This document shows, one piece after another, positions 43,818-58,075 of a stretch of DNA of 64,000 bases (positions are counted from its first letter, which is position 1; each line of letters opens with the position of its first letter). The stretch spans positions 3,166-67,165 of the forward strand of contig CAIMNJ010000011.1 of NCBI GenBank assembly GCA_903842795.1, in the 5' to 3' direction. Position numbers and translations under genes: made by a program. The notes under the pieces were generated by a model that saw only the letters and a program-made list of their open reading frames with translations, made no database searches and had not been told where the DNA came from. Source of the DNA: an uncultured bacterium. GTDB lineage: Bacteria; Patescibacteriota; Microgenomatia; UBA1400; PJMF01.

Positions 43818-44741
43818 ATGAAACAAATCATTATTGCTTACATTCCAGTTTTACATCGTGGCTATCAGGAATTTTTGACTAAGTATCCTGGGGCTGATCT
43901 TTATTTGTTGGACAAAGAAGAGTTATTGGATTTTGAAGAATTAGAATATTTAAAGAAAGATATTCGGGTTTTGGACTTATCTTTGGCTGTAAGATCAATT
44001 GATTCATGGGAGATATTTAAGATTGTAAAATCAATTAAATTAAAGGAATTAGAGAAAATTAATTACCCAAGTGATAAAACCAAATTTATTTTTACCAATG
44101 ATGATATTGGACAATTTGTTGCTGCTAAATTCTTTTCTAAAAACAAGAATAAATTATTTGAACCAATTTTTTTACGTTGGGACAAAAATTTAATCAATTC
44201 ACAAAATGAAGTGCCTAATGATATTGTGATAAGTAGGGAAGAATTTGAACAGCAACATATGAAACAAGCTTTTATGGAAGCTGGCAAAAGTAGCGATTGG
44301 TGGAGACATGTGGGAAGTTTAATTGTTAAGGATGGAGAAGTTGTTTTGGCTGGCTACAATCATCATTTGCCAAATAATGATCAGCAATACAAGAATGGTG
44401 ATCCGCGTACCTCTTTTATTTCTGGCATTGGAACTGATTTTACAAGTTCCATTCATGCTGAAGCGAATTTAATTGCTTTGGCTGCTAAAAAAGGCGTTTC
44501 TCTTGAGGGAGCAGCGATTTTTGCCACCACTTTTCCTTGTCCGGTTTGTGCCAAGCAAATTGCTATTTCAGGAATAAAAAAAGTTTACTATGCCAAGGGC
44601 TATGCTGTGTTAGATGGTATGGAAATTTTTAAGAGTTTTGGAGTTGAGGTGATTTTAGTTAAATTCTCTAAGGAAGAATTTTTGGAAATTGAAAAATTAG
44701 AACAAGAAAGATCAATTGTTAAAGATTGTTATAGTCTTTAG
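43818..44741 (+). CDS. dCMP/cytidine deaminase-family protein with an N-terminal ~150-aa extra domain
   Basis: Zinc-binding 'HAEANLI' and 'PCPVCAKQI' (H-A-E / PCxxC of CDA-fold deaminases); the N-terminal domain is unassigned. Confidence 0.7.
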   Translation: MKQIIIAYIPVLHRGYQEFLTKYPGADLYLLDKEELLDFEELEYLKKDIRVLDLSLAVRSIDSWEIFKIVKSIKLKELEKINYPSDKTKFIFTNDDIGQFVAAKFFSKNKNKLFEPIFLRWDKNLINSQNEVPNDIVISREEFEQQHMKQAFMEAGKSSDWWRHVGSLIVKDGEVVLAGYNHHLPNNDQQYKNGDPRTSFISGIGTDFTSSIHAEANLIALAAKKGVSLEGAAIFATTFPCPVCAKQIAISGIKKVYYAKGYAVLDGMEIFKSFGVEVILVKFSKEEFLEIEKLEQERSIVKDCYSL

Positions 44742-45212
44742 CTAAACTCTTTTTTCCCACTGTAATCCGAGCTTAATTTTGACTGGTTCAAAGTCTTCTG
44801 ACATGGCATCAGGAACGACCAGCTGAACATGGAGGTGATTTACAGTGCCGGCAGAAAAGTCGGTATCACCAAAACGCATGGCAAATCCACCTCCTTCAAA
44901 AGCAAAATTTTGCTCCAATTCTTTAATTAAATCAAACATTTCAGTGCCAGCAGCAGAATCCAATTCAGTTAATTTGACGGCATGTTGTTTGTAGATTAAG
45001 AGTAAATGATGTTTTGTATGTTTATATGGCCACTGATTTTTGGTAACTAGCCAATATTTGCCTTCTCTTAAGATGGGATTTTTATGATAAAGACGCAGAT
45101 TTTTTTCGCAAAATGGGCAATGAGCTCTGTCGGCGATTTTTTTCATCACTTCAATTTGATCGTCTTCTCTAGAATTATTGATATTGATGAAACTGTTTTT
45201 ATTTTTAGTCAT
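44742..45212 (-). CDS. HIT-family (histidine triad) hydrolase/transferase
   Basis: 'VNHLHVQLVVP' (HxHxHxx) and 'CPFC' at the N-terminus. Confidence 0.8.
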   Translation of the reverse strand: MTKNKNSFININNSREDDQIEVMKKIADRAHCPFCEKNLRLYHKNPILREGKYWLVTKNQWPYKHTKHHLLLIYKQHAVKLTELDSAAGTEMFDLIKELEQNFAFEGGGFAMRFGDTDFSAGTVNHLHVQLVVPDAMSEDFEPVKIKLGLQWEKRV

Positions 45213-45239
45213 GTGGCTTTCGCAGATGTGTAAAGATTT

Positions 45240-46112
45240 TTAGACAGCAACGGGGATATCCCACATACCTTTATGTGGATTGTAATCGACCAGTTCAAAA
45301 TCTTCGACTCTATAGTCGAAAAGATTTTTCTTTTTGTTTTTCAAAATCATTTTTGGTAGAGGACGAGTCTCTCTTTTAATCAATTCTTTGACATGGTCAA
45401 TTTGATCCACAAAGATGTGAGCATCTGAAAAACTGTGTATATATTCATAAGCTTCATAGCCAGTTACTTCAGCCAACATCATGGTTAGGGCAGCGTATTG
45501 AGCGAGATTGGCAGGAAGTCCAATTGGAACATCACTTGATCTTTGAAACATATGTAAAGTGAGCTTGTTGTCGATGACGCGGATATGAATCCATCCGTGA
45601 CATGGGCAGACCACCACTTTTTGCGTTTTACCTTTACCGCGAATAGTGTATTGAGGGATCCATGGACTAATAAAATGTGTTTTAAGATGAGGTAGCTCTT
45701 TGATTTGTTCGATAATTTCTTTAAACTGATTAAAAGTTCCGCCTTCAGCTGTTGGAAAATCATGAAATGCTGCTCCATAAGATCCTGGACCCAAATCTCC
45801 AGTTTCTAGACCACGTTTTTTGCATTTTTCTTCCGTAACCCATGATTTCCACCAATTACAACCATATTTTTCTAGTTCTGTTTGTGTGCGTGCTCCATTG
45901 ATAAATCCAATTATTTCTCCAATTGCGCCTTTCCACATTTTTTCACTGATTTTTCTCTCAGTAATAATGGGAAATCCTTCACTTAATTTGAAATGTAATG
46001 GAGCGGGAGCAATTTTGCTGATTGTGTCAACTTCTTGTTGTGTTTTTCCCTGAGTTCCTTCGTCTAAAATTTCTTTAAGCAGGCGTTGGTAAGGAGAAAG
46101 TTGCTTTGACAT
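45240..46112 (-). CDS. thyA: Thymidylate synthase (ThyA family)
   Basis: 'VVCPCHGWIHIRV' (catalytic Cys, cf. LPPCH..QFYV) and 'FQRSSDVPIGLPANLAQYAALT' (cf. QRS.D..LG.PFNIASYALLT). Confidence 0.85.
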   Translation of the reverse strand: MSKQLSPYQRLLKEILDEGTQGKTQQEVDTISKIAPAPLHFKLSEGFPIITERKISEKMWKGAIGEIIGFINGARTQTELEKYGCNWWKSWVTEEKCKKRGLETGDLGPGSYGAAFHDFPTAEGGTFNQFKEIIEQIKELPHLKTHFISPWIPQYTIRGKGKTQKVVVCPCHGWIHIRVIDNKLTLHMFQRSSDVPIGLPANLAQYAALTMMLAEVTGYEAYEYIHSFSDAHIFVDQIDHVKELIKRETRPLPKMILKNKKKNLFDYRVEDFELVDYNPHKGMWDIPVAV

Positions 46113-46196
46113 GATAAAAACAATATATGGCAGTTTGCCTTATGACGCAATAGGGCGGTAGTCAATGTGGTCAACATGGTATAAGCTATATCAGAT

Positions 46197-47006
46197 ATGC
46201 AAGCTACACCACTAAAATCCCGTATTGTTCGACCAAATGATGACTTATTGATGGTTATTGATGAAACGATTGCTAATGAGTTGGGTGGTAGTTTGCCGGA
46301 AAACTCTGTTTTAGCAATTAGTACTAAAATTATTAGTTATTGCCAGGGCAGATTAGTCCCAAAAACTATAAATCAAGAAAATGGTAATAAAGAAGAATTG
46401 AGAGAGGAAAAACATAATTTGGTCAAAAAAGAAACCGAATTATATATTGACCCTCACTCTTCTAAATATGACATGATGCTTACCATTAGAAATTCAACGC
46501 TCGCTGTTAATGCGGGGATTGATGAATCAAATGCCTCTTTAGATGGTAAAGAGTGCTTTGTGCTTTGGCCAGAAAAAATTCAAGAAACAATCAATCAAGT
46601 TTGGCAATACTTGCGCCATAAACACGGCTTAAAAAATTTTGGAGTAATTACGACTGACAGCCGTTCTTTTCCTTTACGTTGGGGTGTAGTAGGTACGACT
46701 ATCGCTAGTTGTGGATTTAAGGCACTTAATAATCGAATTGGTGAAACAGATATTTTTGGCCGCACTATTCATATGGTGCAGGTTAATGTGGCTGAGGCTT
46801 TGGGAGTAGCAGCAACATTTGAAATGGGTGAGGTTGCTGAAGTTACGCCACTTGCCTTATTAACCGATCTAAAAAAAGTACAGTTCGTAGACCATGAACC
46901 AACAGAACAAGAATTGGAAGATAATAAGATTGAAATAGAAGATGATGCTTATGCGCCTTTATTAACCAACGCTAATTGGCAAAAAGGAGAAAAATATCAT
47001 GAGTAA
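46197..47006 (+). CDS. CofE-like (F420-0:gamma-glutamyl ligase family) protein
   Basis: 'IVRPNDDLL...VLAISTKIISYCQGRLV' and 'NAGIDESNASLDG...VITTDSRSFPLRWG' parallel CofE motifs ('I.PGDDL...IVSKAEGR', 'GIDASN...VIISDT'). Confidence 0.55.
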   Translation: MQATPLKSRIVRPNDDLLMVIDETIANELGGSLPENSVLAISTKIISYCQGRLVPKTINQENGNKEELREEKHNLVKKETELYIDPHSSKYDMMLTIRNSTLAVNAGIDESNASLDGKECFVLWPEKIQETINQVWQYLRHKHGLKNFGVITTDSRSFPLRWGVVGTTIASCGFKALNNRIGETDIFGRTIHMVQVNVAEALGVAATFEMGEVAEVTPLALLTDLKKVQFVDHEPTEQELEDNKIEIEDDAYAPLLTNANWQKGEKYHE

Positions 47007-47526
47007 ACCAGAAGTAATTTTAATTGCAGCCATGAGCATTGATGGCTTTATTGCTCCAAAAGATCAGGAAAAATTGCCTTCAACTGTTTGGACGAGTAAA
47101 GAGGATTGGCGTTTTTTTACCAAAAAAAGTAAAGAAATTGGCACCATGATCATGGGTTCCAAAACTTTTGAAACAATCAAAAGAGCTTTGCCGGATAGAC
47201 GTACAATTGTTATGACCAGCAAACCAGAAAAATATAATAAGTATATTGATTCAAATTTGGAATTCACAACTTCTAATCCAGAAGATATTCTGAATAACTT
47301 AGCTCAGCAGGGTTTGGAAAAGGTAGCACTTTGTGGTGGGGCTCATATTTATAGTTTGTTTTTACAAAAAGGTTTAATTGATCGTATGTTTTTGACAGTT
47401 GAGCCATATGTTTTCGGTGAGGGAGTTAAGCTTTTTTCTATATCAGCAGAAGAAAAATTCATTTTGATTGGACAAGAAAGATTAAATGAGCAGGGGACAC
47501 TGCTCTTGGAATTTCAAAGGAAATAA
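46999..47526 (+). CDS. Dihydrofolate reductase-like (RibD C-terminal/DHFR family) protein
   Basis: 'VILIAAMSIDGFIA' and 'VALCGGAHIYSLFLQKGLIDRMFLTVEPYVFGEG', typical of the DHFR/RibD_C fold; 8-nt overlap with the upstream CofE-like gene. Confidence 0.65.
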   Translation: MSKPEVILIAAMSIDGFIAPKDQEKLPSTVWTSKEDWRFFTKKSKEIGTMIMGSKTFETIKRALPDRRTIVMTSKPEKYNKYIDSNLEFTTSNPEDILNNLAQQGLEKVALCGGAHIYSLFLQKGLIDRMFLTVEPYVFGEGVKLFSISAEEKFILIGQERLNEQGTLLLEFQRK

Positions 47527-48128
47527 CTTTCTCCATGTCCAGGATAAACTTGACCGTAGTAGCCTTGCTGGTTTAATTCCTTGAGTTTCTCTAAACTCTT
47601 ACTCATTTTTTTACCATCAGAGTAGGCAAAATCAGTGCGGCCAATATTGCCATTGGCAAAAATAGTGTCGCCACTAAACAAAATTTTTTCTTTTTTGTTT
47701 AGTAAGCAAATACTGCCAGGAGTGTGCCCTGGAGTTTGAATAATTTCGATCTCTTCACCTAAGATGTCTAGATTCTTTGTTTTGGCTAGATCAAAATCAG
47801 CCGGAGGAATTGGGTCGCTTTTTGTGCCTAGCCAATGAGCGGCGCTAGCTTGGGCTTTTTCTAATAAAAATTGATCAGCAAAATTCATCATTATTGGTGT
47901 TCCCCAAGCACTTTTGAGACTCAGTAATCCAAGGCAGTGGTCAAAATGGCCATGAGTGAGAATGATGTTCTGTAATTTTAATCCACGATGGAGTAGTTCA
48001 TCGTTGAGAAAGTCGCCGTCGTCAGCTGGATCAATAATAATAGCGCTATTTTCAAACCCAGCTGCATTGCTGGTAAGAAGATAACAGTTGGTTTGTAAAT
48101 CACCCAAAACAAAAGTTTCTATTTGCAT
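47514..48128 (-). CDS. Metallo-beta-lactamase-fold hydrolase (glyoxalase II-like)
   Basis: 'ILTHGHFDHC' (HxHxDH) and 'TPGHTPGS'; 204 aa. Confidence 0.8.
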   Translation of the reverse strand: MQIETFVLGDLQTNCYLLTSNAAGFENSAIIIDPADDGDFLNDELLHRGLKLQNIILTHGHFDHCLGLLSLKSAWGTPIMMNFADQFLLEKAQASAAHWLGTKSDPIPPADFDLAKTKNLDILGEEIEIIQTPGHTPGSICLLNKKEKILFSGDTIFANGNIGRTDFAYSDGKKMSKSLEKLKELNQQGYYGQVYPGHGESYFL

Positions 48129-48150
48129 TGGCTTATGTTAGCATCAAAAC

Positions 48151-48582
48151 ATGCAAGTGAAAATTAAGCTTTTTGATCAGACTTTACCGCTTCCAGAATA
48201 CAAAAGTAGTGGGGCCGCAGCGCTAGATCTTTATAGCCGCATAGAGATGGAAATTAAACCTGGAGAAGTGGCTTACGTGCCTCTTAATATCGCTTTGCAG
48301 GTGCCAGAAGATTACTTCGTTTTATTGTCTGCTCGCAGTTCATTACATAAAAAAGGTTTGATGATGGCCAATGGAATTGGTGTTGGTGATTATGACTATC
48401 GTGGGGATGGAGATGAATATAAGGCTGCTCTTTATAATTTTGGTAAAGAAGTAGCCAAAATTGAAAAAAGCGAACGTCTGGTGCAAATGATTGTCTTAAA
48501 AAGAGAAAAGGTAGCTTTAGAGCAACTGGAAGTTTTTGAAACACAAGATCGCGGTGGCTTTGGGAGTACTGGTAAAAAATAA
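48151..48582 (+). CDS. dut: dUTP diphosphatase
   Basis: 'LPEYKSSGAAALDLY' (motif I-II), 'GVGDYDYRG' and a C-terminal 'RGGFGSTG'. Confidence 0.9.
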   Translation: MQVKIKLFDQTLPLPEYKSSGAAALDLYSRIEMEIKPGEVAYVPLNIALQVPEDYFVLLSARSSLHKKGLMMANGIGVGDYDYRGDGDEYKAALYNFGKEVAKIEKSERLVQMIVLKREKVALEQLEVFETQDRGGFGSTGKK

Positions 48583-48586
48583 AACT

Positions 48587-49486
48587 ATGCGCGACCAAAT
48601 GGCTATACTTTTTGATCGAGCTGGTTATACAAGAGATAGTCATCCTGCCATCATTGCTGCCAACGATGTCTCATCATTGGAGTCTTTACTGATTTATACA
48701 CTTGGCGAGTTAATCGAGTTGAGTGCTGAGCATGAATGTTTATTGATTGCCAGCGATGCGGCTGGTGAAAAATTACAGCCGTCTAAACAATGGTGGTTGG
48801 AGTTTGCTGACTTCATTGTGATGCTCAAGATTATTAACGACAGGACCGGCTCAAAATTTTCTGTAGAAGAAACAAGTTTCTCTGTAAATGGTCAATTTAA
48901 GGGAAGTTTTGATTCTCTAGCTGAGCAAACAGTTAATCTTGCTGAAGGAGATGTTGGAAGGAATTTTGATTTTCTTTTTACAGAATTAATGTCTTTGGTT
49001 AGGCATTTGAATGTGGATTTACAAGGTGAACTTTATGCTAGGTTAATTAATGCTAAATTGTTTTTAAATCGTGAAATGCGTTTTTTTAAAATTGAAAAAG
49101 GCATGAATGAACTAGATGTAATCAATAAAAACAATCATGTTTTTAAAGCACTTCGTCTATTAAGAAGTTTTTTGTTGGAAGCAACTGGAGAGGAAATGAC
49201 TTTGCAGCCGTGGATTACTGATTTTTTTCAGGATGAAATTTCTGATTGGCGAAATAGTGATTTTGCTCTTGAAAGCCTAAGGAAAAAAATTGCTATTTTT
49301 AAAATAAAAATTAAGGATGAGCTGGCATGGAGTTTGACTGGTCGCAATACTGGAGATGAGTTTTTGGAAATGAAAATGATGATTGCTGGAGCAAAATTGA
49401 TTGCAGTAAATACAAGTGATGAGCAATCGACTTTACAAAGCAGGTCCGCTAATGCTACTCTGGGGACAACTGTTTTTTGGACTTAA
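48587..49486 (+). CDS. Hypothetical protein (~299 aa)
   Basis: Start is moved to MRDQMAI (48587) to remove the overlap with dut; no motifs recognised. Confidence 0.45.
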   Translation: MRDQMAILFDRAGYTRDSHPAIIAANDVSSLESLLIYTLGELIELSAEHECLLIASDAAGEKLQPSKQWWLEFADFIVMLKIINDRTGSKFSVEETSFSVNGQFKGSFDSLAEQTVNLAEGDVGRNFDFLFTELMSLVRHLNVDLQGELYARLINAKLFLNREMRFFKIEKGMNELDVINKNNHVFKALRLLRSFLLEATGEEMTLQPWITDFFQDEISDWRNSDFALESLRKKIAIFKIKIKDELAWSLTGRNTGDEFLEMKMMIAGAKLIAVNTSDEQSTLQSRSANATLGTTVFWT

Positions 49487-49520
49487 TTTTTAGAATTTGC
49501 AAAAAAATAGCAAAGGAAAA

Positions 49521-50228
49521 ATGAAAAAAAAGGGCTTATTGATTACGTTAGAAGGTGGAGAAGGTGTTGGTAAAACAACTCAAGTGGTTAGACTCAAAGA
49601 AAGGCTAATTCAAGAAGGCAAAGATGTGGTTGTTTTACGTGAGCCAGGTGGCACAGCCATAAGTGAGCAAATTCGTGAAGTTGTTTTGTCCAATAAGAAT
49701 GTTGGTATGGCTTACACGACTGAGGTGTTGCTTTTTCAAGCTGCCAGAGCACAAATTTATCGCGAAATTGTTTTGCCATCTCTAGAGTTAGGCAAAGTGG
49801 TAGTTATGGATCGTTCTCGTGATAGCAGTGTGGTTTATCAGGGCATGGTGCGTGGTTTTGGAGTAGAAATCATTGAGCAGTTAAACGATATTTCTACCAA
49901 AAAAATTTATCCAGATATTACTTTTTTGCTTGACGCTCCTGTTGAAATTGGCTTAGGCAGACGTATGGCTGTAGAAGGTGCTAATCGTATTGATTATGAA
50001 GCCAAAGATTTCCATGAAAAAGTTCGTCAAGCCTATTTGCAGGTCGCCAAAGCAGATTTGAAGAAATTAGGTACACATTCTCGTTGGCAAATTATTGATG
50101 CTAGTGCAGACGCAGAGGTGGTGGAAAGACAAATGTGGGATTTGACCAAAAGCTTTTTAGATAAGAACAAAACCAAAGATTGGGAGAATCAATTGGAGGA
50201 TGCTTCCGTTGACTATGTTGAGGAGTAA
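49521..50228 (+). CDS. tmk: Thymidylate kinase
   Basis: P-loop 'ITLEGGEGVGKTTQ'; 'DRSRDSSVVYQG' (DRY-like); LID 'GRRMAVEGANRIDYE'. Confidence 0.9.
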   Translation: MKKKGLLITLEGGEGVGKTTQVVRLKERLIQEGKDVVVLREPGGTAISEQIREVVLSNKNVGMAYTTEVLLFQAARAQIYREIVLPSLELGKVVVMDRSRDSSVVYQGMVRGFGVEIIEQLNDISTKKIYPDITFLLDAPVEIGLGRRMAVEGANRIDYEAKDFHEKVRQAYLQVAKADLKKLGTHSRWQIIDASADAEVVERQMWDLTKSFLDKNKTKDWENQLEDASVDYVEE

Positions 50229-50944: not shown

Positions 50945-50976
50945 AAAAGCGAGGTCGAGACCTCGCTTTTTTTTTG
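50945..50976 (+). terminator. Rho-independent terminator after recR
   Basis: 'AAAAGCGAGGTCGAGACCTCGCTTTTTTTTT'. Confidence 0.75.
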
Positions 50977-51037
50977 CTTGCTACCAAAAAATATATTAGC
51001 TAGGCAAGAACTGCCCAAAACAGAAGGATTTCCGGTC

Positions 51038-52672
51038 ATGCAACAAGATTCCACTTACACAAAAGTGTCTTCTTACGAGGGAAGAAAAGGCACAGTCAAG
51101 AAAGTAGTACTGCTTTATTCTGGTGGTTTGGATACTTCAGTGATGCTGAAGTGGATTCAAGAAACCTATGAAGCACAAGTGATTGCTTTAACTATTGATA
51201 TTGGACAACAAGCTGATGATTTGGACGAAATTAAAAAGAAAGCTCTCAAAATGGGGGCAATTAAGGCAATTGTGGTAGATGCCAAAAATGAATTTGCTTA
51301 TCACTACTTAGCTAAAGGCATCAAAGCCAACGCTAGTTATCAGGGAAAATATCACATGAGCACACCAATGGGTCGTCCACTTTTGGCTAAAATTGCTGTT
51401 GATGTTGCTAGAGAATATGGTGCAGACACTATTGCTCATGGTTGCACTGGAAAAGGCAATGATCAAGTCAGAATTGAAGGCTCAATTTTGACTTTAGCAC
51501 CAGAAATGAAAATTATTGCTCCAGTACGCGAGTGGAGTATGGGCCGTGATGAGGAAATTGTTTACGCCAAAAAACATGGTATTCCAGTTAAGCAAACTGT
51601 AGCTTCGCCATATTCTTATGATGACAATATGTGGGGTGTAACTGGCGAGAGTGGAGAGATTGAAAATCCAGCTCTTATTCCACCACTAGATAAAATTTTG
51701 CAAGTTTGCAACATCGTCGAAAAAACTCCAGCTAAACCTCAGTATGTAAAATTACGTTTTATTAAAGGTTTGCCAGTAGAAGTGGACGGTAAGCCCATGC
51801 GCTTAGCAGAACTAATTATGCATCTTAATCATGTTGGAGCTAAGCATGGAGTTGGTGTAACTCATCACATTGAGGATCGTTTAGTGGGTTTAAAAGTTCG
51901 CGGATTATATGAAGCTCCAGCTGCGGAAATTATTATCAGTGCGCACTTTAATCTGGAAAAATATGTTTCTACTCGTCAGGAGAATGAATTCAAATCGATC
52001 ATTGATACTAAATGGGCATACATGTGTTACGGTGCTCTTTGGTATGAGCCATTAATGGATGATCTCAATGCTTATTTGGACAAAGTCAATCAAAAAGTGA
52101 CTGGCTTGGTGACGGTTAAATTATTCAAAGGTCAGGCTGAAGTGGTGGCTGTTGAGACGGCTAACAGTATTTTCGATGAGAAGCTGGCTACTTTTATGAA
52201 GAACGACACCTTTAATCAAAATGCTTCGGCTGGTTTTATTGAGATTTACACTTTGCAAATGCGTTTAGCTCAAGACACGGAACACTTTGCCTTATTGACT
52301 ATAGGTGAAGAAAAAAATAAGAAAAAGTTTTTGCCAATTGCTCATAAGCTCAAAGATTTGGGTTTCCAATTTTATGCCACGGAAAACACTCATCTTTTCT
52401 TAAAGAAAAATGACATTAATTCAATTATGGTGCACAAAATGTACAATAAAACTTTCCCAAGTTTGGAAGATGTTTTGCGCCAAGATGTTTTTGATTTAAT
52501 CATCAATGTTCCTCAGGATGAGCCAAGCAAAGAGGCCAAAGTTGATGAAAAGGTAATTAAGACCTGGGCCATCAAGAACGGCATTACTTTGATTAAAGAT
52601 TTTGAAACTGCTGATGGTTTTGTTAAGAAATTAGAAAAGAGATTGATTATCAGAAAGCGTAAAGAGAAATAA
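51038..52672 (+). CDS. argG: Argininosuccinate synthase fused to a C-terminal MGS-like domain
   Basis: N-terminal ArgG motifs: 'KVVLLYSGGLDTSVMLKWIQE', 'AHGCTGKGNDQVRIE' and 'IAPVREW'. The C-terminal ~135 aa are 'ALLTIGEEKNKKKFLPIAHKLKDLGFQFYATENTHLFLKKNDINSIMVHKM...DLIINVPQD'. These resemble the MGS-like domain of CPSase large subunit and PurH. Start is taken at MQQDST (51038). Confidence 0.85.
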   Translation: MQQDSTYTKVSSYEGRKGTVKKVVLLYSGGLDTSVMLKWIQETYEAQVIALTIDIGQQADDLDEIKKKALKMGAIKAIVVDAKNEFAYHYLAKGIKANASYQGKYHMSTPMGRPLLAKIAVDVAREYGADTIAHGCTGKGNDQVRIEGSILTLAPEMKIIAPVREWSMGRDEEIVYAKKHGIPVKQTVASPYSYDDNMWGVTGESGEIENPALIPPLDKILQVCNIVEKTPAKPQYVKLRFIKGLPVEVDGKPMRLAELIMHLNHVGAKHGVGVTHHIEDRLVGLKVRGLYEAPAAEIIISAHFNLEKYVSTRQENEFKSIIDTKWAYMCYGALWYEPLMDDLNAYLDKVNQKVTGLVTVKLFKGQAEVVAVETANSIFDEKLATFMKNDTFNQNASAGFIEIYTLQMRLAQDTEHFALLTIGEEKNKKKFLPIAHKLKDLGFQFYATENTHLFLKKNDINSIMVHKMYNKTFPSLEDVLRQDVFDLIINVPQDEPSKEAKVDEKVIKTWAIKNGITLIKDFETADGFVKKLEKRLIIRKRKEK

Positions 52673-52673
52673 A

Positions 52674-53645
52674 ATGAATAAAGACTGGGATTTGAAGTCA
52701 TATTTATTAAAAAAAATTAAAAAACAAGGTGGTTGGGTGAGCGCACACAACCACCTTGACAAGGCCTATCTTGTAAAACCTGGAGATTTATCTTTGGCTT
52801 ATTTATCTTTGCAAAAAAAATGGGATTTAATTGATGAGCTCAAAAAAACTCAAACTGTCCAGCAAATCTATGATCGCATGGCTTATGGGCTTGAACAGCA
52901 ACTCGCTCAAGGTGTGACTGCTCTTGGCACTTTTATTGATGTTGATCCATTGATAAAAGATAAGGCAATGAAAGCTGCTGATAAGGTAAGAGAACGATAC
53001 AAATCTCAAATTGATTTGGTTTTTATTAACCAGACTGTCAAAGGGGTTATGGATCAAGAAGCGCGTAAATGGTTTGATGAGGCTGCGCAATTTGTTGACA
53101 TTATTGGTGGTTTACCTGGCAAAGATAAAGGCAGAGAAGCAGAACATTTGGATATTTTATTAAGTACTGCCAAAAGGCGTCAGCAAATGATTCATGTTCA
53201 TGTTGATCAGTTTAATGATCCAAATGAAGAGGAAACAGCTCTTTTGGTGCGCAAAACTATCGAGCACAATATGCAAGGTAAGGTAGTGGGAGTACATGGC
53301 ATTTCTATTGCAGCGCATTCACTTGAGTACCGCCAAAAACTTTATAAAGATATGGTGGAAGCCAAAGTTATGATGGTGGCTTGTCCAACAGCTTGGATTG
53401 ATCATAGACGTCGTGAAGATTTGGTTCCATCTCACAATGCTGTGACTCCGGTGGATGAGATGGTGCCAGCAGGAATAACGGTGGCCATCGGTCCAGATAA
53501 TATTGCCGATTATTACAAGCCTTTTACTGATGGAGATATGTGGACAGAATTACGCTTTTTGTTGGAAGCTTGTCATTATTACGATTTGGAAGAATTAGTA
53601 AAAATAGCTACGATTAATGGTAGAAAGGTTTTAGGTTTAATTTAA
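52674..53645 (+). CDS. Amidohydrolase-superfamily protein, dihydroorotase-like (candidate PyrC)
   Basis: 'VSAHNHLD' (HxH metal site), 'IHVHVDQFND' and 'AIGPDNIADYY' parallel E. coli PyrC 'WHLHLRDG', 'VHGEV...D.F' and 'GTDSAPH'. Its position directly upstream of pyrD-pyrE-pyrF supports this. Confidence 0.5.
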   Translation: MNKDWDLKSYLLKKIKKQGGWVSAHNHLDKAYLVKPGDLSLAYLSLQKKWDLIDELKKTQTVQQIYDRMAYGLEQQLAQGVTALGTFIDVDPLIKDKAMKAADKVRERYKSQIDLVFINQTVKGVMDQEARKWFDEAAQFVDIIGGLPGKDKGREAEHLDILLSTAKRRQQMIHVHVDQFNDPNEEETALLVRKTIEHNMQGKVVGVHGISIAAHSLEYRQKLYKDMVEAKVMMVACPTAWIDHRRREDLVPSHNAVTPVDEMVPAGITVAIGPDNIADYYKPFTDGDMWTELRFLLEACHYYDLEELVKIATINGRKVLGLI

Positions 53646-53658
53646 CAAGGCCAAATAT

Positions 53659-54732
53659 ATGTTGCAAACTCCTTTTTACGATCCGAGCAAAAGTTACGAA
53701 GAAAATTTTGATCAAGGGCCATTTGGTGATTTTGCAGATGACAAATTGATCATGCGCGATGCAGAACCAACAAAAACTTTTTTAGGTCAATCAATTTATC
53801 TGCCTTTTGGGATTCCAGCTGGTCCATTATTGAATAGTAAATTTACAACCGCAGCTTTTAAAAAAGGTTTTGATTTATGTGTTTATAAGACTGTTCGTAC
53901 GAGAGCTTATCCTTGTCATCCGTGGCCAAATGTTTTGGGGGTCAAGGTTGCTGGAGATTTAACCTTGCAAAAGGCCGAATTGCCTTTGCGAGCTGAGACA
54001 AATTACAGCGAACCACTTTCCATCACCAATTCTTTTGGCGTGCCATCAATGAATCCTGATTTTTGGCAAATTGATATGGCCAAGGCAGTTGAGAATACAG
54101 GAATTGGACAAGTAATGATTGGCAGTTTTCAGGGGACCAAAAAACCTGGAGGGACCGCCCAGGATCTAATTGATGATTATGTTTTGGCCGCCAAACTGGT
54201 CAAAGAAACTGGTGCCAAAATTCTGGAGGCCAATCTAAGTTGTCCAAATGAAGGAACTGCAGATTTACTTTGTTTTGATACAGATAGAGTGTATTTAATT
54301 GCAGAAAAAATCAAAAATGAAATTGGTAATACGCCACTAATTCTTAAGCTGGCTTATTTTAAAGATCAGGCTCACTTGCAAGCTTATGTTCAAAAAATTG
54401 GTTCTATTGTCGATGGCTTAAGTGTAATTAATACCATCGCTGCTCCTATTATCAATCAAGCTGGAGAGCAAGCTTTACCTGGAGAAGGTAGACTGCGTAG
54501 CGGTGTTTGTGGAGCTGCCATCAAATGGGCTGGTTTAGAAATGGTTGATCGTTTAGTGAAATTGCGTCAAGAAAATCAACAAAAATTTGCAATTATCGGT
54601 GTGGGTGGCGTCACTGTGGCAGATGATTATTTGGCTTATGTTAAATCTGGCGCCGATGCGGTAATGAGTGCAACTGGCGCCATGTGGAATCCAAACTTGG
54701 CCAAAGAAATTTTAGCGAAAGTAAATAAATAA
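53659..54732 (+). CDS. pyrD: Dihydroorotate dehydrogenase family protein
   Basis: 'YLPFGIPAGPL', 'LEANLSCPNE' and 'FAIIGVGGV' are DHODH hallmarks. Confidence 0.8.
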   Translation: MLQTPFYDPSKSYEENFDQGPFGDFADDKLIMRDAEPTKTFLGQSIYLPFGIPAGPLLNSKFTTAAFKKGFDLCVYKTVRTRAYPCHPWPNVLGVKVAGDLTLQKAELPLRAETNYSEPLSITNSFGVPSMNPDFWQIDMAKAVENTGIGQVMIGSFQGTKKPGGTAQDLIDDYVLAAKLVKETGAKILEANLSCPNEGTADLLCFDTDRVYLIAEKIKNEIGNTPLILKLAYFKDQAHLQAYVQKIGSIVDGLSVINTIAAPIINQAGEQALPGEGRLRSGVCGAAIKWAGLEMVDRLVKLRQENQQKFAIIGVGGVTVADDYLAYVKSGADAVMSATGAMWNPNLAKEILAKVNK

Positions 54733-54743
54733 AAGGAGAAAAC

Positions 54744-55409
54744 ATGTCAGTTTCAAAAACTAACTTAGAAACAAGGATTGCTCAAGCCTTAATTAGAATT
54801 GGGGCAGTGGGTTTCAAGCCAGAAAATCCCATTACTTTTAAGTCTGGAATTATTTCTCCAGTATATGTTGATAATCGTCGCTTCCCATTTTATTCTGCTG
54901 AATGGAAATTAGTGGTGGAAGGCTTTAGAGAATTAATTATAAAAGATGAGATTGATTTTGATGTTTTGGCAGGAATTGAAACTGCTGGCATTCCTCACAG
55001 CGCTGCTCTTGGGTATGCCATGGACAAGCCATCCGTTTTTGTGCGCAAAAAAGTCAAAGATCATGGTACCAAAAGTCGTATTGAAGGCGGACAAGTCAAA
55101 GATAAAAAAGTGTTGTTGATTGAGGATCTGGTGACGACTGGTGGGAGTAGTTTGGCTGGAGTTGAAGCCTTGCGTGCTGATGGGGCAATCGTTAATGATT
55201 GCTTAATTATTGTGGGTTATGGTTTTGAAGAAGCAACTAGTGCTTTTGCTGCTGCTAAAGTTAAGCTTCACGCTTTGACAAATTTTTCGATAATTCTAGA
55301 AGAAGCCCTCAAACAAAAATTATTTACTGCTGAGCAAAAGTTAATTTTAGAAAACTGGTTTCAAGATCCTTGGGGCTGGGGAAAGCGCTATGGCCATGAC
55401 GTTTCTTGA
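54744..55409 (+). CDS. pyrE: Orotate phosphoribosyltransferase
   Basis: PRPP-binding 'VLLIEDLVTTGGS'; 221 aa. Confidence 0.85.
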   Translation: MSVSKTNLETRIAQALIRIGAVGFKPENPITFKSGIISPVYVDNRRFPFYSAEWKLVVEGFRELIIKDEIDFDVLAGIETAGIPHSAALGYAMDKPSVFVRKKVKDHGTKSRIEGGQVKDKKVLLIEDLVTTGGSSLAGVEALRADGAIVNDCLIIVGYGFEEATSAFAAAKVKLHALTNFSIILEEALKQKLFTAEQKLILENWFQDPWGWGKRYGHDVS

Positions 55410-56199
55410 AAAATATAACGAACGCGTCGATAAAGTTAATTCGCTATTGTGTGTTGGATTGGATGCTGATTTTTCACAAATTCCAGCTCGTTTTCAAAAA
55501 TTAGAGCATCCTCAATTCACCTTTAATAAGTGGGTTATCGAGCAAACTCATCAACATGTGAGTGCCTATAAACCGAACTCGGCTTTCTATGAAGCTAGGG
55601 GAGAAAATGGTTGGCAAGATTTATCATTAACAGTGCAGTATTTAAGAGAAAATCACCCAGAAATTGCAATTATTCTCGATGCTAAGCGTGCCGACATCGG
55701 CAACACTAATCAGGGGTATGTTGGTGCTTTTTTTGATCAGCTTGGAGTAGATGCTGTGACGCTACATCCATATTTAGGTCAGCAAGCCCTGCAGCCTTTT
55801 TTGGACAGAGTAGATAAAGGTTTGATTATCTTATGTAAAACTTCCAATCCTAACTCTGGCGAATTTCAAGATCTTGAAACCACTGCTGGCAAAAAACTTT
55901 GGCAAATAATAGCAACGCAGGTTGCAGAGAAATGGAACATTAATAATAATTGTTTATTGGTGGTTGGAGCCACCTATCCAGAAGAGATTAAAGAAGTTAG
56001 GAAGCTTGTTGGTGAAATGACCCTGTTGGTGCCGGGAATTGGTGCTCAGGGTGGAGAAGTCAAAGACACTGTTCAGGCTGGTCTCAATTCTGACCAAAAA
56101 GGCTTGATTATTAATTCGGCGCGAGGAATTATTTTTGCAGAAAATCCGTCCTTAGAAGCGCAAAAACTACGAGACGAAATTAATCTATACAGGAAATGA
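55390..56199 (+). CDS. pyrF: Orotidine-5'-phosphate decarboxylase (type 2)
   Basis: 'ILDAKRADIGNT' (cf. DxKRGDIGNT); overlaps the pyrE 3' end by 20 nt. Confidence 0.85.
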   Translation: MAMTFLEKYNERVDKVNSLLCVGLDADFSQIPARFQKLEHPQFTFNKWVIEQTHQHVSAYKPNSAFYEARGENGWQDLSLTVQYLRENHPEIAIILDAKRADIGNTNQGYVGAFFDQLGVDAVTLHPYLGQQALQPFLDRVDKGLIILCKTSNPNSGEFQDLETTAGKKLWQIIATQVAEKWNINNNCLLVVGATYPEEIKEVRKLVGEMTLLVPGIGAQGGEVKDTVQAGLNSDQKGLIINSARGIIFAENPSLEAQKLRDEINLYRK

Positions 56200-57008: not shown

Positions 57009-57392
57009 ATGGCAGATAATCAAGATCCATTAGCAGCATTGCAACAGTTGCTTGATGATCAAAAGAAACAGGGTGGGTTGGCTGATTTGCCAGCTGTTGG
57101 TGCGGATGGAGTTGCCTCAAGCAGCTCTGGTGAAGCGCCAGTTGCTCCTGCGGATCCTCCAGTGCCAGCTGGTCCTACAGCAGAAGAAATTGCTGCTTTG
57201 CAAAAAGAAAAAGAAGCTGAAGATCAACTCAAGATTGAGGAACAGCTTGGTAGAATGAATACTGAACTAAAGGATACACCTCAATATCAAGCGCGAATGA
57301 CTCAAAAAGCGGCTAATGACTCTTTAAATGAACAAAAACAGCTGGAAGAAAGAAGCAGACGTATTTTTCAAATAAAGCATCTCGATCCATAA
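57009..57392 (+). CDS. Hypothetical low-complexity protein (Ala/Pro/Gln-rich)
   Basis: 127 aa with 'APVAPADPPVPAGPT'; predicted disordered. Confidence 0.45.
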   Translation: MADNQDPLAALQQLLDDQKKQGGLADLPAVGADGVASSSSGEAPVAPADPPVPAGPTAEEIAALQKEKEAEDQLKIEEQLGRMNTELKDTPQYQARMTQKAANDSLNEQKQLEERSRRIFQIKHLDP

Positions 57393-57409
57393 GTTAGATA
57401 AGGATTTTT

Positions 57410-58075
57410 ATGTCAGGTTTCGGTAGTTTCGGTGGAGGAGCTAAGTCTCAAGCTAGACCAGGGGGAGGTTTTCGTCAAACTTTTGGTTCTTTTACTGATG
57501 AGCATGAAAATGCTAATGCTAATTCATCTGCAGCTGCGCAAAAGCAGTTGTCACAGCAGGCTTCAGTGTTAGGTCAGCAGGGTTTGGCCAAACAACAAGC
57601 AGCTTCAGCTGGAGCAAATCAAACTCCTCTAGCTTCACATGATTCTTCCAATCAAGTTTCAGAACCAAGGACAGTTTCCAATCTAAGTGAAGAGTTGATA
57701 GCTAGACCAGCTAAGGATATTTTTAATACTTTTAAGTCATTCTTTGACCTCAATGCTTTATTGGGCATAAATCCAGGAGATACTCCTGAAAAAAAAGCCA
57801 AAAAACAAAAAATTGCGCAGAATTGGCAAAAATTGACTGGCGAAGAACAAACTTACGTGCAACAAAAGTACCAAGAAGAAATGCAGAAAAAGCAAAGAGA
57901 GCAACAGGAAGAGCAACAGAAAAAAGAGGAAGAGGCTCGTCAGGCAGAGGAGCAGAGTATTGCACCACCAAGCAGTCCCAAAAAAGGCCCAGCAGACCCA
58001 AGCGGTAGTAAAAAAGCTCAAACTACCCAACTAATGCAAAATAAGCGTACACAAATGAGCCAAGCCGATGGCTAA
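57410..58075 (+). CDS. Hypothetical low-complexity protein (Gly/Gln/Ala/Ser-rich, with an EQQKKEEE helical C-terminus)
   Basis: 221 aa, starting 'MSGFGSFGGGAKSQARPGGGFRQTFGSF...'. Confidence 0.45.
   Translation: MSGFGSFGGGAKSQARPGGGFRQTFGSFTDEHENANANSSAAAQKQLSQQASVLGQQGLAKQQAASAGANQTPLASHDSSNQVSEPRTVSNLSEELIARPAKDIFNTFKSFFDLNALLGINPGDTPEKKAKKQKIAQNWQKLTGEEQTYVQQKYQEEMQKKQREQQEEQQKKEEEARQAEEQSIAPPSSPKKGPADPSGSKKAQTTQLMQNKRTQMSQADG

Follow-up and report, generated by a model that had tools for sequence, protein, structure and literature searches.

A five-gene operon lies on the forward strand of a 64,000-nucleotide stretch (the window) of contig CAIMNJ010000011.1, from an uncultured bacterium of the Patescibacteriota. 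Its first gene, at 51038-52672, encodes in one uninterrupted open reading frame (ORF) an argininosuccinate synthase (ArgG) that continues into a C-terminal methylglyoxal-synthase-like (MGS-like) domain. The second gene encodes an amidohydrolase, here called AH, and the last three a divergent dihydroorotate dehydrogenase (PyrD-like), orotate phosphoribosyltransferase (PyrE) and orotidine-5'-phosphate decarboxylase (PyrF). The spacing is as tight as the initial annotation of this sequence had described, with gaps of 1 nt between ArgG-MGS and AH, 13 nt between AH and PyrD-like and 11 nt between PyrD-like and PyrE, and a 20-nt overlap of PyrE and PyrF. What stands at the head of this operon may be an entry into pyrimidine synthesis that dispenses with carbamoyl phosphate.

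The ArgG-MGS fusion and its partner amidohydrolase

To judge by its sequence, the ArgG part is a canonical argininosuccinate synthase. Pfam places Arginosuc_synth at residues 22-183 of the fusion (2.8e-66) and Arginosuc_syn_C at residues 192-410 (1.4e-65), and the NCBIfam models PRK00509 and TIGR00032 match over the full length with 500.5 bits (cut-off 334) and 457.3 bits (cut-off 268.2). ArgG structures match residues 16-411 at 1e-100 in a sequence search of the PDB, with about 50% identity to solved ArgGs (T. thermophilus 1j1z; 6xnq) along the whole length. The ATP-pyrophosphatase P-loop YSGGLDTS and the substrate motif GCTGKGNDQVRIE (of the TGKGNDQVR type) align with those of 1j1z and 6xnq, and both motifs (SGGLDTS and TGKGNDQVR) are invariant across 31 fusion proteins. 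Because the ArgG part looks canonical, argininosuccinate is the likely product of ArgG-MGS. Fold, N-type ATP-pyrophosphatase P-loop, motifs and full-length score are all shared with ArgG proper (EC 6.3.4.5; TIGR00032/PRK00509), and most probably so is the chemistry; the differences are the C-terminal domain, the position ahead of pyrD, pyrE and pyrF in one operon and away from any ArgH, and a product that is proposed to feed pyrimidines instead of arginine.

The C-terminal domain is of the type that serves as the allosteric domain of CarB, the large subunit of carbamoyl-phosphate synthetase (CPS). The Pfam profile for MGS (PF02142) matches residues 431-519 with 44.9 bits (1.3e-11; gathering cut-off 24.1), and residues 418-535 align with positions 937-1049 of the 1058-position NCBIfam CarB model, which is its allosteric domain. 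In the PDB sequence search the CPS MGS-like domain 2yvq matches at 2.6e-7, human CPS1 is matched as well, and the match to the MGS-like domain of human CPS spans residues 424-535. No model for MgsA, methylglyoxal synthase proper, is among the NCBIfam matches with E<=0.01, the C-terminus being matched by CarB models only. An AlphaFold2 (AF2) model gives the domain a predicted local distance difference test score (pLDDT) of 84-92 and five predicted beta-alpha units, in which strands at 416-422, 443-448, 462-466, 487-491 and 517-519 alternate with helices; the model of the whole fusion is of moderate quality (pLDDT 67), and the packing of the domains is not judged from it.

When the MGS domains of 27 ArgG fusions are aligned with CarB of E. 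coli and one CarB of the Candidate Phyla Radiation (CPR), the equivalents of CarB K954, T974, T977, K993 and D1025 are kept in 26-27 of the 27, and the position of S948 is Ser or Thr throughout. We take K954, T974, T977 and K993 to be the ligands of the nucleotide phosphate in the E. coli CPS-IMP structure, where IMP is inosine monophosphate. These four are also kept in a different protein with an MGS domain, the AsnA-like-MGS fusion considered below. The position of Thr1042, which belongs to the ornithine site of CarB, is variable. The likeness to the CarB domain therefore lies in the PF02142 match, the 937-1049 alignment, the K954/T974/T977/K993/D1025 equivalents and an analogous position at the entry to pyrimidine synthesis, and the difference in the variable Thr1042 position and in the carrier, which is ArgG here and an AsnA-like ligase or AH in relatives.

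Frameshift or mis-assembly as the source of the fusion is ruled out by the continuous ORF and by a survey of the best 120 database homologues (72-93% identity, 492-561 aa), all 120 of which have the identical three Pfam domains within one chain; those that carry a name are from Pacebacteria, Woesebacteria and the 'Patescibacteria group'. For a large part of Patescibacteria, ArgG-MGS is the standard form of ArgG, and the label it bears in databases is plain 'argininosuccinate synthase'. As a sequence feature it adds a new domain architecture to an enzyme already known. The initial annotation had recognized both the canonical ArgG N-terminus and the MGS-like C-terminus, which it likened to the allosteric domain of CarB or to PurH, and had allowed for the extension proving to be another domain or a separate gene behind a frameshift; its two assignments stand, with the MGS domain confirmed in a single ORF and the homologues fused likewise, while its view that the fusion is not a standard architecture has to be given up in light of the survey.

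AH scores 487.4 bits (cut-off 340) against PRK06886, a family that goes by the name 'hypothetical protein'. The gene had been called pyrC-like in that same annotation, a description that does not hold: no dihydroorotase model matches AH in the NCBIfam search, its nearest relatives in both sequence and structure matches are cytosine deaminase (CodA) and AtzC, and membership of the PyrC family is rejected. By its sequence, AH belongs to the CodA/AtzC clade and not with the dihydroorotases. Relatives are named amidohydrolase, cytosine deaminase-related or hypothetical in databases, with 'cytosine deaminase' the term used by JGI. The AF2 model of AH is confident (pLDDT 88.7).

Active-site residues were mapped by aligning AH to CodA and then using the CodA-AtzC correspondences (PMC4577212); AH-AtzC identity is 21-24%, and the equivalences were reached via CodA without a direct AtzC alignment of the N-terminus. 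AtzC has His60, His62, His217 and Asp303 as Zn ligands, His249 as catalytic residue, and Lys65, Asn304 and His219 as substrate residues (PMC4577212). The corresponding metal ligands are kept in AH (H25, H27, H176 and D275), and H208 is its equivalent of the catalytic His249. Gln179 is invariant at the position of CodA Glu217, the catalytic Glu of the HxxE motif of deaminases, and of AtzC His219; Asn276 is at the position of AtzC Asn304 (CodA Asp314), and Lys or Arg30 at that of AtzC Lys65 (CodA Thr66). Conservation of these active-site residues extends over the family, to AH proteins of CPR, of Bacteroidota, of Melainabacteria and of a high-GC lineage. Identity of AH across CPR, Bacteroidota and Melainabacteria is 55-60%, an unusually high value between phyla, which suggests strong constraint or horizontal transfer.

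That AH is a cytosine deaminase proper is spoken against by the replacement of Glu217 by Gln179 and of Asp314 by Asn276, and by a score of 97.7 bits against the cytosine deaminase model, the cut-off of which is 403. More generally AH differs from AtzC and CodA, both subtype III amidohydrolases, in being without the N-terminal beta-sandwich and shorter than their approximately 400-430 aa, in having Gln for CodA Glu217/AtzC His219, in scoring far under the cut-offs of both families, and in a context of arginine and pyrimidine genes instead of triazine catabolism or base salvage. One seemingly 'extended' AH of 471 aa (P0132) is uninformative, as its C-terminal half has been duplicated in the assembly.

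Table 1. Positions of the operon genes and domains in the window and of related genes in the other loci named in the text
Feature	Location	Positions	Strand	Assignment or remark
ArgG domain, residues 1-414 of the fusion	Window	51038..52279	+	PF00764, PF20979; NCBIfam argG equivalogs above cut-off
MGS-like domain, CarB allosteric type, residues 418-535, in frame with ArgG	Window	52289..52642	+	PF02142, CarB model; gene end 52672
Amidohydrolase AH, 323 aa	Window	52674..53645	+	NCBIfam PRK06886; cytosine-deaminase/AtzC-like mononuclear metal hydrolase
PyrD-like, divergent dihydroorotate dehydrogenase, class-1-like, 357 aa	Window	53659..54732	+	Pfam DHO_dh
PyrE, orotate phosphoribosyltransferase, 221 aa	Window	54744..55409	+	TIGR00336, 125.5 bits (cut-off 106.8)
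PyrF, orotidine-5'-phosphate decarboxylase subfamily 2, 269 aa	Window	55390..56199	+	TIGR02127, 240.5 bits (cut-off 110.6)
Terminator-like hairpin and T run	Window	50945..50979	+	11-bp stem, 4-nt loop; hairpin proper 50945-50970; about 60 nt 5' of the ArgG-MGS start
AsnA-like(-MGS) gene	L026	8331-9818	-	
AsnA-like(-MGS) gene	L137	8001-9494		
AsnA-like(-MGS) gene	L139	8001-9491		
AH-PyrD fusion P0298	L087	9420-11393		
AH-PyrD fusion P0298	L088	4011-5984		
MGS-AH fusion	L089	10001-11443		
MGS-AH fusion	L092	9245-10699		
MGS-AH fusion	L086			

Gene neighborhoods across genomes

An alignment of AH proteins, run against a single genome for each species, gave 514 relatives, and the best 80 of these together with L001, the contig of a homologue, make up the 81 loci analyzed, with flanks of up to 10 kb. 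The closest species-level loci are from a Pacebacteria metagenome-assembled genome and a 'Candidatus Microgenomatus' one, which places the window in a Microgenomates-type member of the CPR. ArgG is found within 10 kb of AH in 30 of the 81, and in all 30 it is MGS-fused; in 24 of these ArgG-MGS immediately precedes AH, with both genes on one strand, and PyrD, PyrE, PyrF or PyrK is also present in 19 of the 30. The PyrD-like protein of the window has the DHO_dh domain (69.1 bits, cut-off 27), a DHODH (dihydroorotate dehydrogenase) as every one of its PDB matches and a retained catalytic 'NLSCPN' motif that aligns with that of the class 1B DHODH 5ksw, and it scores under every NCBIfam subfamily cut-off. 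Among the late genes of L024 are a canonical class-1B PyrD and PyrK, both above cut-off. Since the late genes are non-orthologous between lineages, the linkage of ArgG-MGS, AH and pyr genes reflects function and not mere inherited order.

The other neighbors of AH are genes for enzymes of arginine and citrulline. AH adjoins ArgH in 15 loci, of Saprospiria, Flavobacteriales and some Patescibacteria/CPR, and in Saprospiria (for example Saprospira grandis, L033), Chitinophagales and Flavobacteriales it is immediately 3' of an ArgH equivalog. In Weeksellaceae and Moheibacter (L072, L075, L081) AH is followed by a gene of the arginine deiminase (ADI)/DDAH superfamily and by the citrulline hydrolase CtlX (12 loci). 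A DDAH-like (dimethylargininase/arginine-dihydrolase-like) gene stands between ArgG-MGS and AH in L018, L022 and L060 and adjoins AH on the short contig L016, and ArgH is near ArgG-MGS in L055 and L100. PyrD or PyrK is sometimes near AH in Melainabacteria (examples of AH from this group are L023, L043 and L048), and AH is retained in the reduced (~0.6 Mb) genomes of Blattabacterium (B. cuenoti, L039 and L052). Across these loci AH is linked both to enzymes of N-delta-substituted ornithines (citrulline, arginine, argininosuccinate) and to dihydroorotate dehydrogenase.

Fusions were sought by profile search over 1.8 billion representative proteins. AH itself is fused to an MGS domain in five clusters (P0255, P0258, P0265, P0276 and P0286; 473-487 aa), from high-GC (58-69%) contigs of a non-CPR lineage. 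Three of the clusters were looked up; in the two that have flanks the gene converges on a DHO_dh gene, an arrangement present in L089-L094, and the third is on a contig of 1.6 kb without neighboring genes. A further protein, P0298 (657 aa), found in two independent samples, has an AH-like domain joined to a PyrD-like one and is followed by PyrE and PyrF.

A third carrier of the MGS domain is AsnA-like, a truncated paralogue of asparaginyl-tRNA synthetase (PF00152) that is annotated 'amino acid-tRNA ligase-related'. The AsnA-like-MGS fusion accounts for 119 of the 120 top matches (P0391-P0510) and is widespread in Patescibacteria. It heads an operon with PyrD-like, PyrF, PyrE and PyrG in L137 and L138, and in L139 it is clustered with AH (419.7 bits against PRK06886), ArgH, PyrE-like and an ArgG that is not fused; L018 combines ArgG-MGS with an AsnA-like gene that has no fusion. 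L139 has in addition, at 1371-2333 on the reverse strand, a gene for a 319-aa protein of transcarbamoylase fold, with 79 bits for aspartate transcarbamoylase (ATCase) and 66 bits for ornithine transcarbamoylase (OTCase), both far below the cut-offs. In the loci examined the MGS domain occurs once in each module, carried by ArgG, AsnA-like or AH, and it is plausible that the domain marks the step committing metabolites to the pyrimidine branch.

In the 64 kb of the window, the part of the genome covered by this search, no homologue of PyrB, PyrC, CarA, CarB, OTC or ArgH is present, and PyrB, PyrC and CarAB are not seen in 80 of the 81 AH loci. The exception, L017, has canonical PyrB, CarA and CarB and a normal PyrC alongside AH, and because of that PyrC, AH is not needed there as a dihydroorotase. 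A metagenome scan with the L017 PyrB yielded 34 CPR-type PyrB loci, and the order PyrB-CarA-CarB(MGS)-PyrC is found in all seven with sufficient flank. PyrD, PyrF and PyrE continue after PyrC in L100-L102, PyrD is on the opposite strand in L109, and in the shorter loci L104 and L116 PyrB is likewise paired with PyrC. Since the CPR carriers of PyrB with sufficient flank already have PyrC, AH is not their dihydroorotase. AH occurs among the 34 only in the closest relatives of L017, where it is divergent from PyrB; the loci in which the two adjoin are L017, L096, L097 and L100. ArgG-MGS and AH occupy the slot that PyrB, CarA, CarB(MGS) and PyrC fill where this bacterial group has the canonical operon.

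In L100 a single strand carries a DDAH-like gene together with ArgH and ArgG-MGS, and AH and the pyr operon are next to them. The presence of an arginine-consuming enzyme with ArgG and ArgH argues against plain arginine synthesis, and the gene set is easy to reconcile with a module making argininosuccinate from arginine. In L101-L103, where a canonical pyr operon is without AH, a DDAH-like gene and CtlX are directly upstream of PyrB, an arrangement that again links arginine/citrulline breakdown to pyrimidine synthesis.

A possible route from citrulline to UMP

The six-step route to uridine monophosphate (UMP) is regarded as among the most conserved pathways in biology, and the usual description of CPR bacteria is that they cannot make nucleotides. 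Our reading, to which we give a probability of roughly one half, is that the operon encodes a route to UMP without carbamoyl phosphate, in which citrulline and aspartate meet via argininosuccinate and AH releases ornithine. ArgG-MGS would join citrulline and aspartate at the expense of ATP to give argininosuccinate. AH would then cleave the bond between the guanidino carbon and ornithine, freeing ornithine and leaving the ureido carbon and nitrogen on aspartate, a reaction chemically arginase-like in outcome and AtzC-like in mechanism. AtzC frees an alkylamine from an amidine-type carbon flanked by nitrogens. PyrD-like, PyrE and PyrF would finish the path to UMP. Citrulline, probably derived from arginine, would donate C2 and N3 of the pyrimidine ring.

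How the ring would close is a matter on which two variants can be drawn. In variant X the product of AH would be linear N-carbamoyl-aspartate, and its ring would be closed either by the AsnA-like ligase or, as could happen in L017 and L100, by PyrC. In AsnA chemistry it is the beta-carboxyl of aspartate that becomes activated, the group at which variant X needs its new bond, and AsnA-like-MGS may be an ATP-dependent ring-closing enzyme that forms dihydroorotate. Variant Y starts from the fact that argininosuccinate forms a six-membered anhydride; this would arise first, and AH would then displace ornithine from C2 to yield dihydroorotate directly. Variant X is favored by the operon of L137 and by the loci where AH adjoins PyrB, and the AtzC-like pocket and the place of AH immediately before PyrD favor variant Y. 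CarAB and PyrB would be bypassed in both, PyrC also in variant Y, and ornithine would be the by-product.

The MGS domain would supply feedback of the UMP/IMP type, and across the modules described above it would seem to put such feedback on whichever enzyme commits metabolites to the route, here ArgG. The evidence fits better with ArgG recruited as the pyrimidine entry enzyme than with an enzyme of arginine synthesis whose only tie to pyrimidines is to sense them. The fusion had initially been taken to hint at cross-regulation between arginine and pyrimidine branches that normally share carbamoyl phosphate; a link between the two is supported by conserved synteny, and cross-regulation is probably too weak a term for it, given that ArgG-MGS and AH hold the pyrB-carA-carB-pyrC slot.

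Compared with the CarAB-PyrB-PyrC entry, the proposed one has the same slot upstream of pyrD/E/F, the same predicted products (carbamoyl-aspartate or dihydroorotate) and a CarB-type domain at the committed step. It differs in its enzymes and in the absence of carbamoyl phosphate, the carbamoyl unit being derived from citrulline, the by-product being ornithine and ATP being converted to AMP and PPi, all as proposed. With arginase and the arginine deiminase pathway it would share a hydrolysis that frees ornithine from a guanidino compound, and the use of arginine or citrulline as a source of carbamoyl or nitrogen in fermentative, host-dependent bacteria. The fold and metal site of AH are, however, unrelated to those of arginase, which is an alpha/beta enzyme with binuclear Mn; argininosuccinate is what AH is proposed to act on, and its product would be kept for biosynthesis and not given up for urea or ATP.

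Several points weigh against this route. The reaction ascribed to AH is deduced from genomic context and active-site resemblance. Were AH to make carbamoyl-aspartate, as in variant X, the window operon would be without a ring-closing enzyme, and the L137 operon, within 8 kb of which there is neither ArgG nor AH, leaves the pathway logic incomplete. The route would spend ATP to AMP and PPi, an expense that citrulline phosphorolysis followed by ATCase would not incur. The module is not always a replacement, for L017 and L100 hold the complete canonical pathway as well as the AH module, and in Bacteroidota the place of AH beside ArgH would fit a part in arginine metabolism just as well. In the AH-PyrD fusion P0298 the AH half has neither the metal ligands nor the catalytic residues, so the value of this protein as a clean Rosetta stone for AH and PyrD is weakened; that half is probably an inactive structural domain.

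Of the other accounts of these genes, one has the pathway be ordinary, with ArgG-MGS an arginine enzyme (ArgH being elsewhere) that bears an ornithine- or nucleotide-sensing domain, AH an unusual dihydroorotase acting after a PyrB encoded elsewhere, and their co-location a matter of co-regulating two aspartate-consuming pathways. AH is indeed directly upstream of PyrD, where pyrC is expected, and adjoins PyrB in the four loci given above, dihydroorotases belong to the same amidohydrolase superfamily, and ArgH is near ArgG-MGS in two loci. We nevertheless consider this account unlikely: canonical PyrC is present in every CPR PyrB locus with sufficient flank, AH loci included, and the account would not explain why a mid-pathway dihydroorotase bears an allosteric MGS domain, nor the 24 cases of AH next to ArgG-MGS or the ArgH, CtlX and DDAH-like neighbors elsewhere.

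Alternatively, AH could belong to arginine metabolism, as an N-acyl deacylase (an ArgE analogue giving ornithine or citrulline) or an arginase- or citrullinase-like enzyme, and be merely co-transcribed, together with ArgG-MGS, with the pyr genes. Its neighbors ArgH, CtlX, ArgG and the DDAH-like genes would be at home in such a scheme, as would the L139 cluster of AH with ArgG, ArgH and the transcarbamoylase-like gene, and the keeping of AH by Blattabacterium, a reduced-genome endosymbiont that reportedly recycles nitrogen. The repeated adjacency or fusion of AH with PyrD, PyrK, PyrE or PyrF in four unrelated lineages is what makes it improbable, as this would be unexplained, along with the nucleotide-sensing MGS domain on AH or ArgG, which points to pyrimidine control; nor are there upstream arginine-biosynthesis genes for acylated precursors in the window or in the 10-kb CPR flanks, the extent to which genomes were covered.

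That AH is a salvage deaminase for cytosine, isocytosine or a related base, with ArgG-MGS unrelated to pyrimidine synthesis, is very hard to credit. Cytosine deaminases are its best matches in both sequence and structure, and JGI labels family members so, but the change of CodA Glu217 to an invariant Gln and of Asp314 to Asn, the score so far below the family cut-off and the fact that base salvage needs no PyrD all speak against it, and its neighbors ArgG, ArgH, CtlX and the DDAH-like genes would go unexplained.

To return to the route by way of argininosuccinate, a full-text literature search found nothing on the ArgG-MGS fusion, on PRK06886 or on a conversion of argininosuccinate to carbamoyl-aspartate or dihydroorotate, and papers on CPR genomes describe nucleotide pathways only as incomplete. 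The broadest form of the proposal, an undescribed carbamoyl-phosphate-independent entry into pyrimidines that is made up of a UMP-regulated ArgG, an AtzC-like 'argininosuccinate ornithine-releasing hydrolase' yielding carbamoyl-aspartate or dihydroorotate and, in some lineages, AsnA-like ring closure, is put forward tentatively, at a little short of even odds.

If true, it would give a pathway that is regarded as universal a new front end, with that formed by CPS, ATCase and dihydroorotase replaced in much of Patescibacteria, while some Bacteroidota and Melainabacteria would have the new one in addition. Argininosuccinate would become the substrate of a newly defined enzyme reaction, and the widespread 'hypothetical protein' family PRK06886 would gain a function. 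The synthesis of UMP in 'nucleotide-auxotrophic' ultra-small bacteria that keep only pyrD/E/F would be explained, metabolic reconstructions for a quarter of bacterial diversity would need revision, and dependence on arginine would be tied to nucleotide supply. From a regulatory perspective, it would be a clean example of an allosteric domain, the MGS-like one of CarB, being transferred to the enzyme that takes over the committed step.

The leader and the surrounding genes

The frame of ArgG-MGS could open at TTG 50978 or at ATG 51038, with the stop at 52672 either way. The likely start codon is ATG 51038, which is preferred because homologues start at the equivalent MQQDS..YTKVSSYEGRKG, and TTG 50978, which is directly 3' of the terminator-like hairpin, was set aside for it. 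This hairpin is either the terminator of recR or an attenuator in the leader of the operon. A comparable hairpin and U-run is 50-80 nt 5' of argG-MGS in L001-L005, L013, L015 and L040, whatever gene precedes, and in L004 and L013 it is present besides another, earlier terminator. It could be an attenuator, responsive for example to UTP or UMP, instead of the terminator of the preceding gene. An Rfam scan of the window found four tRNAs only and no riboswitch or leader family, and a scan for promoter consensus sequences performed no better than on shuffled sequence.

On the 5' side of the operon are genes for dCMP deaminase (a protein with a dCMP deaminase domain), ThyA, DHFR, dUTPase and Tmk, and since these are pyrimidine/dTMP genes the operon is within a pyrimidine-metabolism neighborhood. 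The cluster is dense, extends over 43818-50228 and also includes a HIT protein and a metallo-beta-lactamase-fold protein. Between dUTPase and Tmk, at 48536-49486, is a gene for a 316-aa protein with no Pfam match, and a gene at 46197-47006 for a protein like F420-0:gamma-glutamyl ligase (CofE-like) overlaps that for DHFR by 8 nt. On the other side of the operon, downstream of a ribosome hibernation factor-like gene, are two adjacent ORFs of 127 aa (without a Pfam match) and 221 aa, at 57009-58075, whose products are of low complexity and rich in Ala, Pro, Gln, Glu and Lys.

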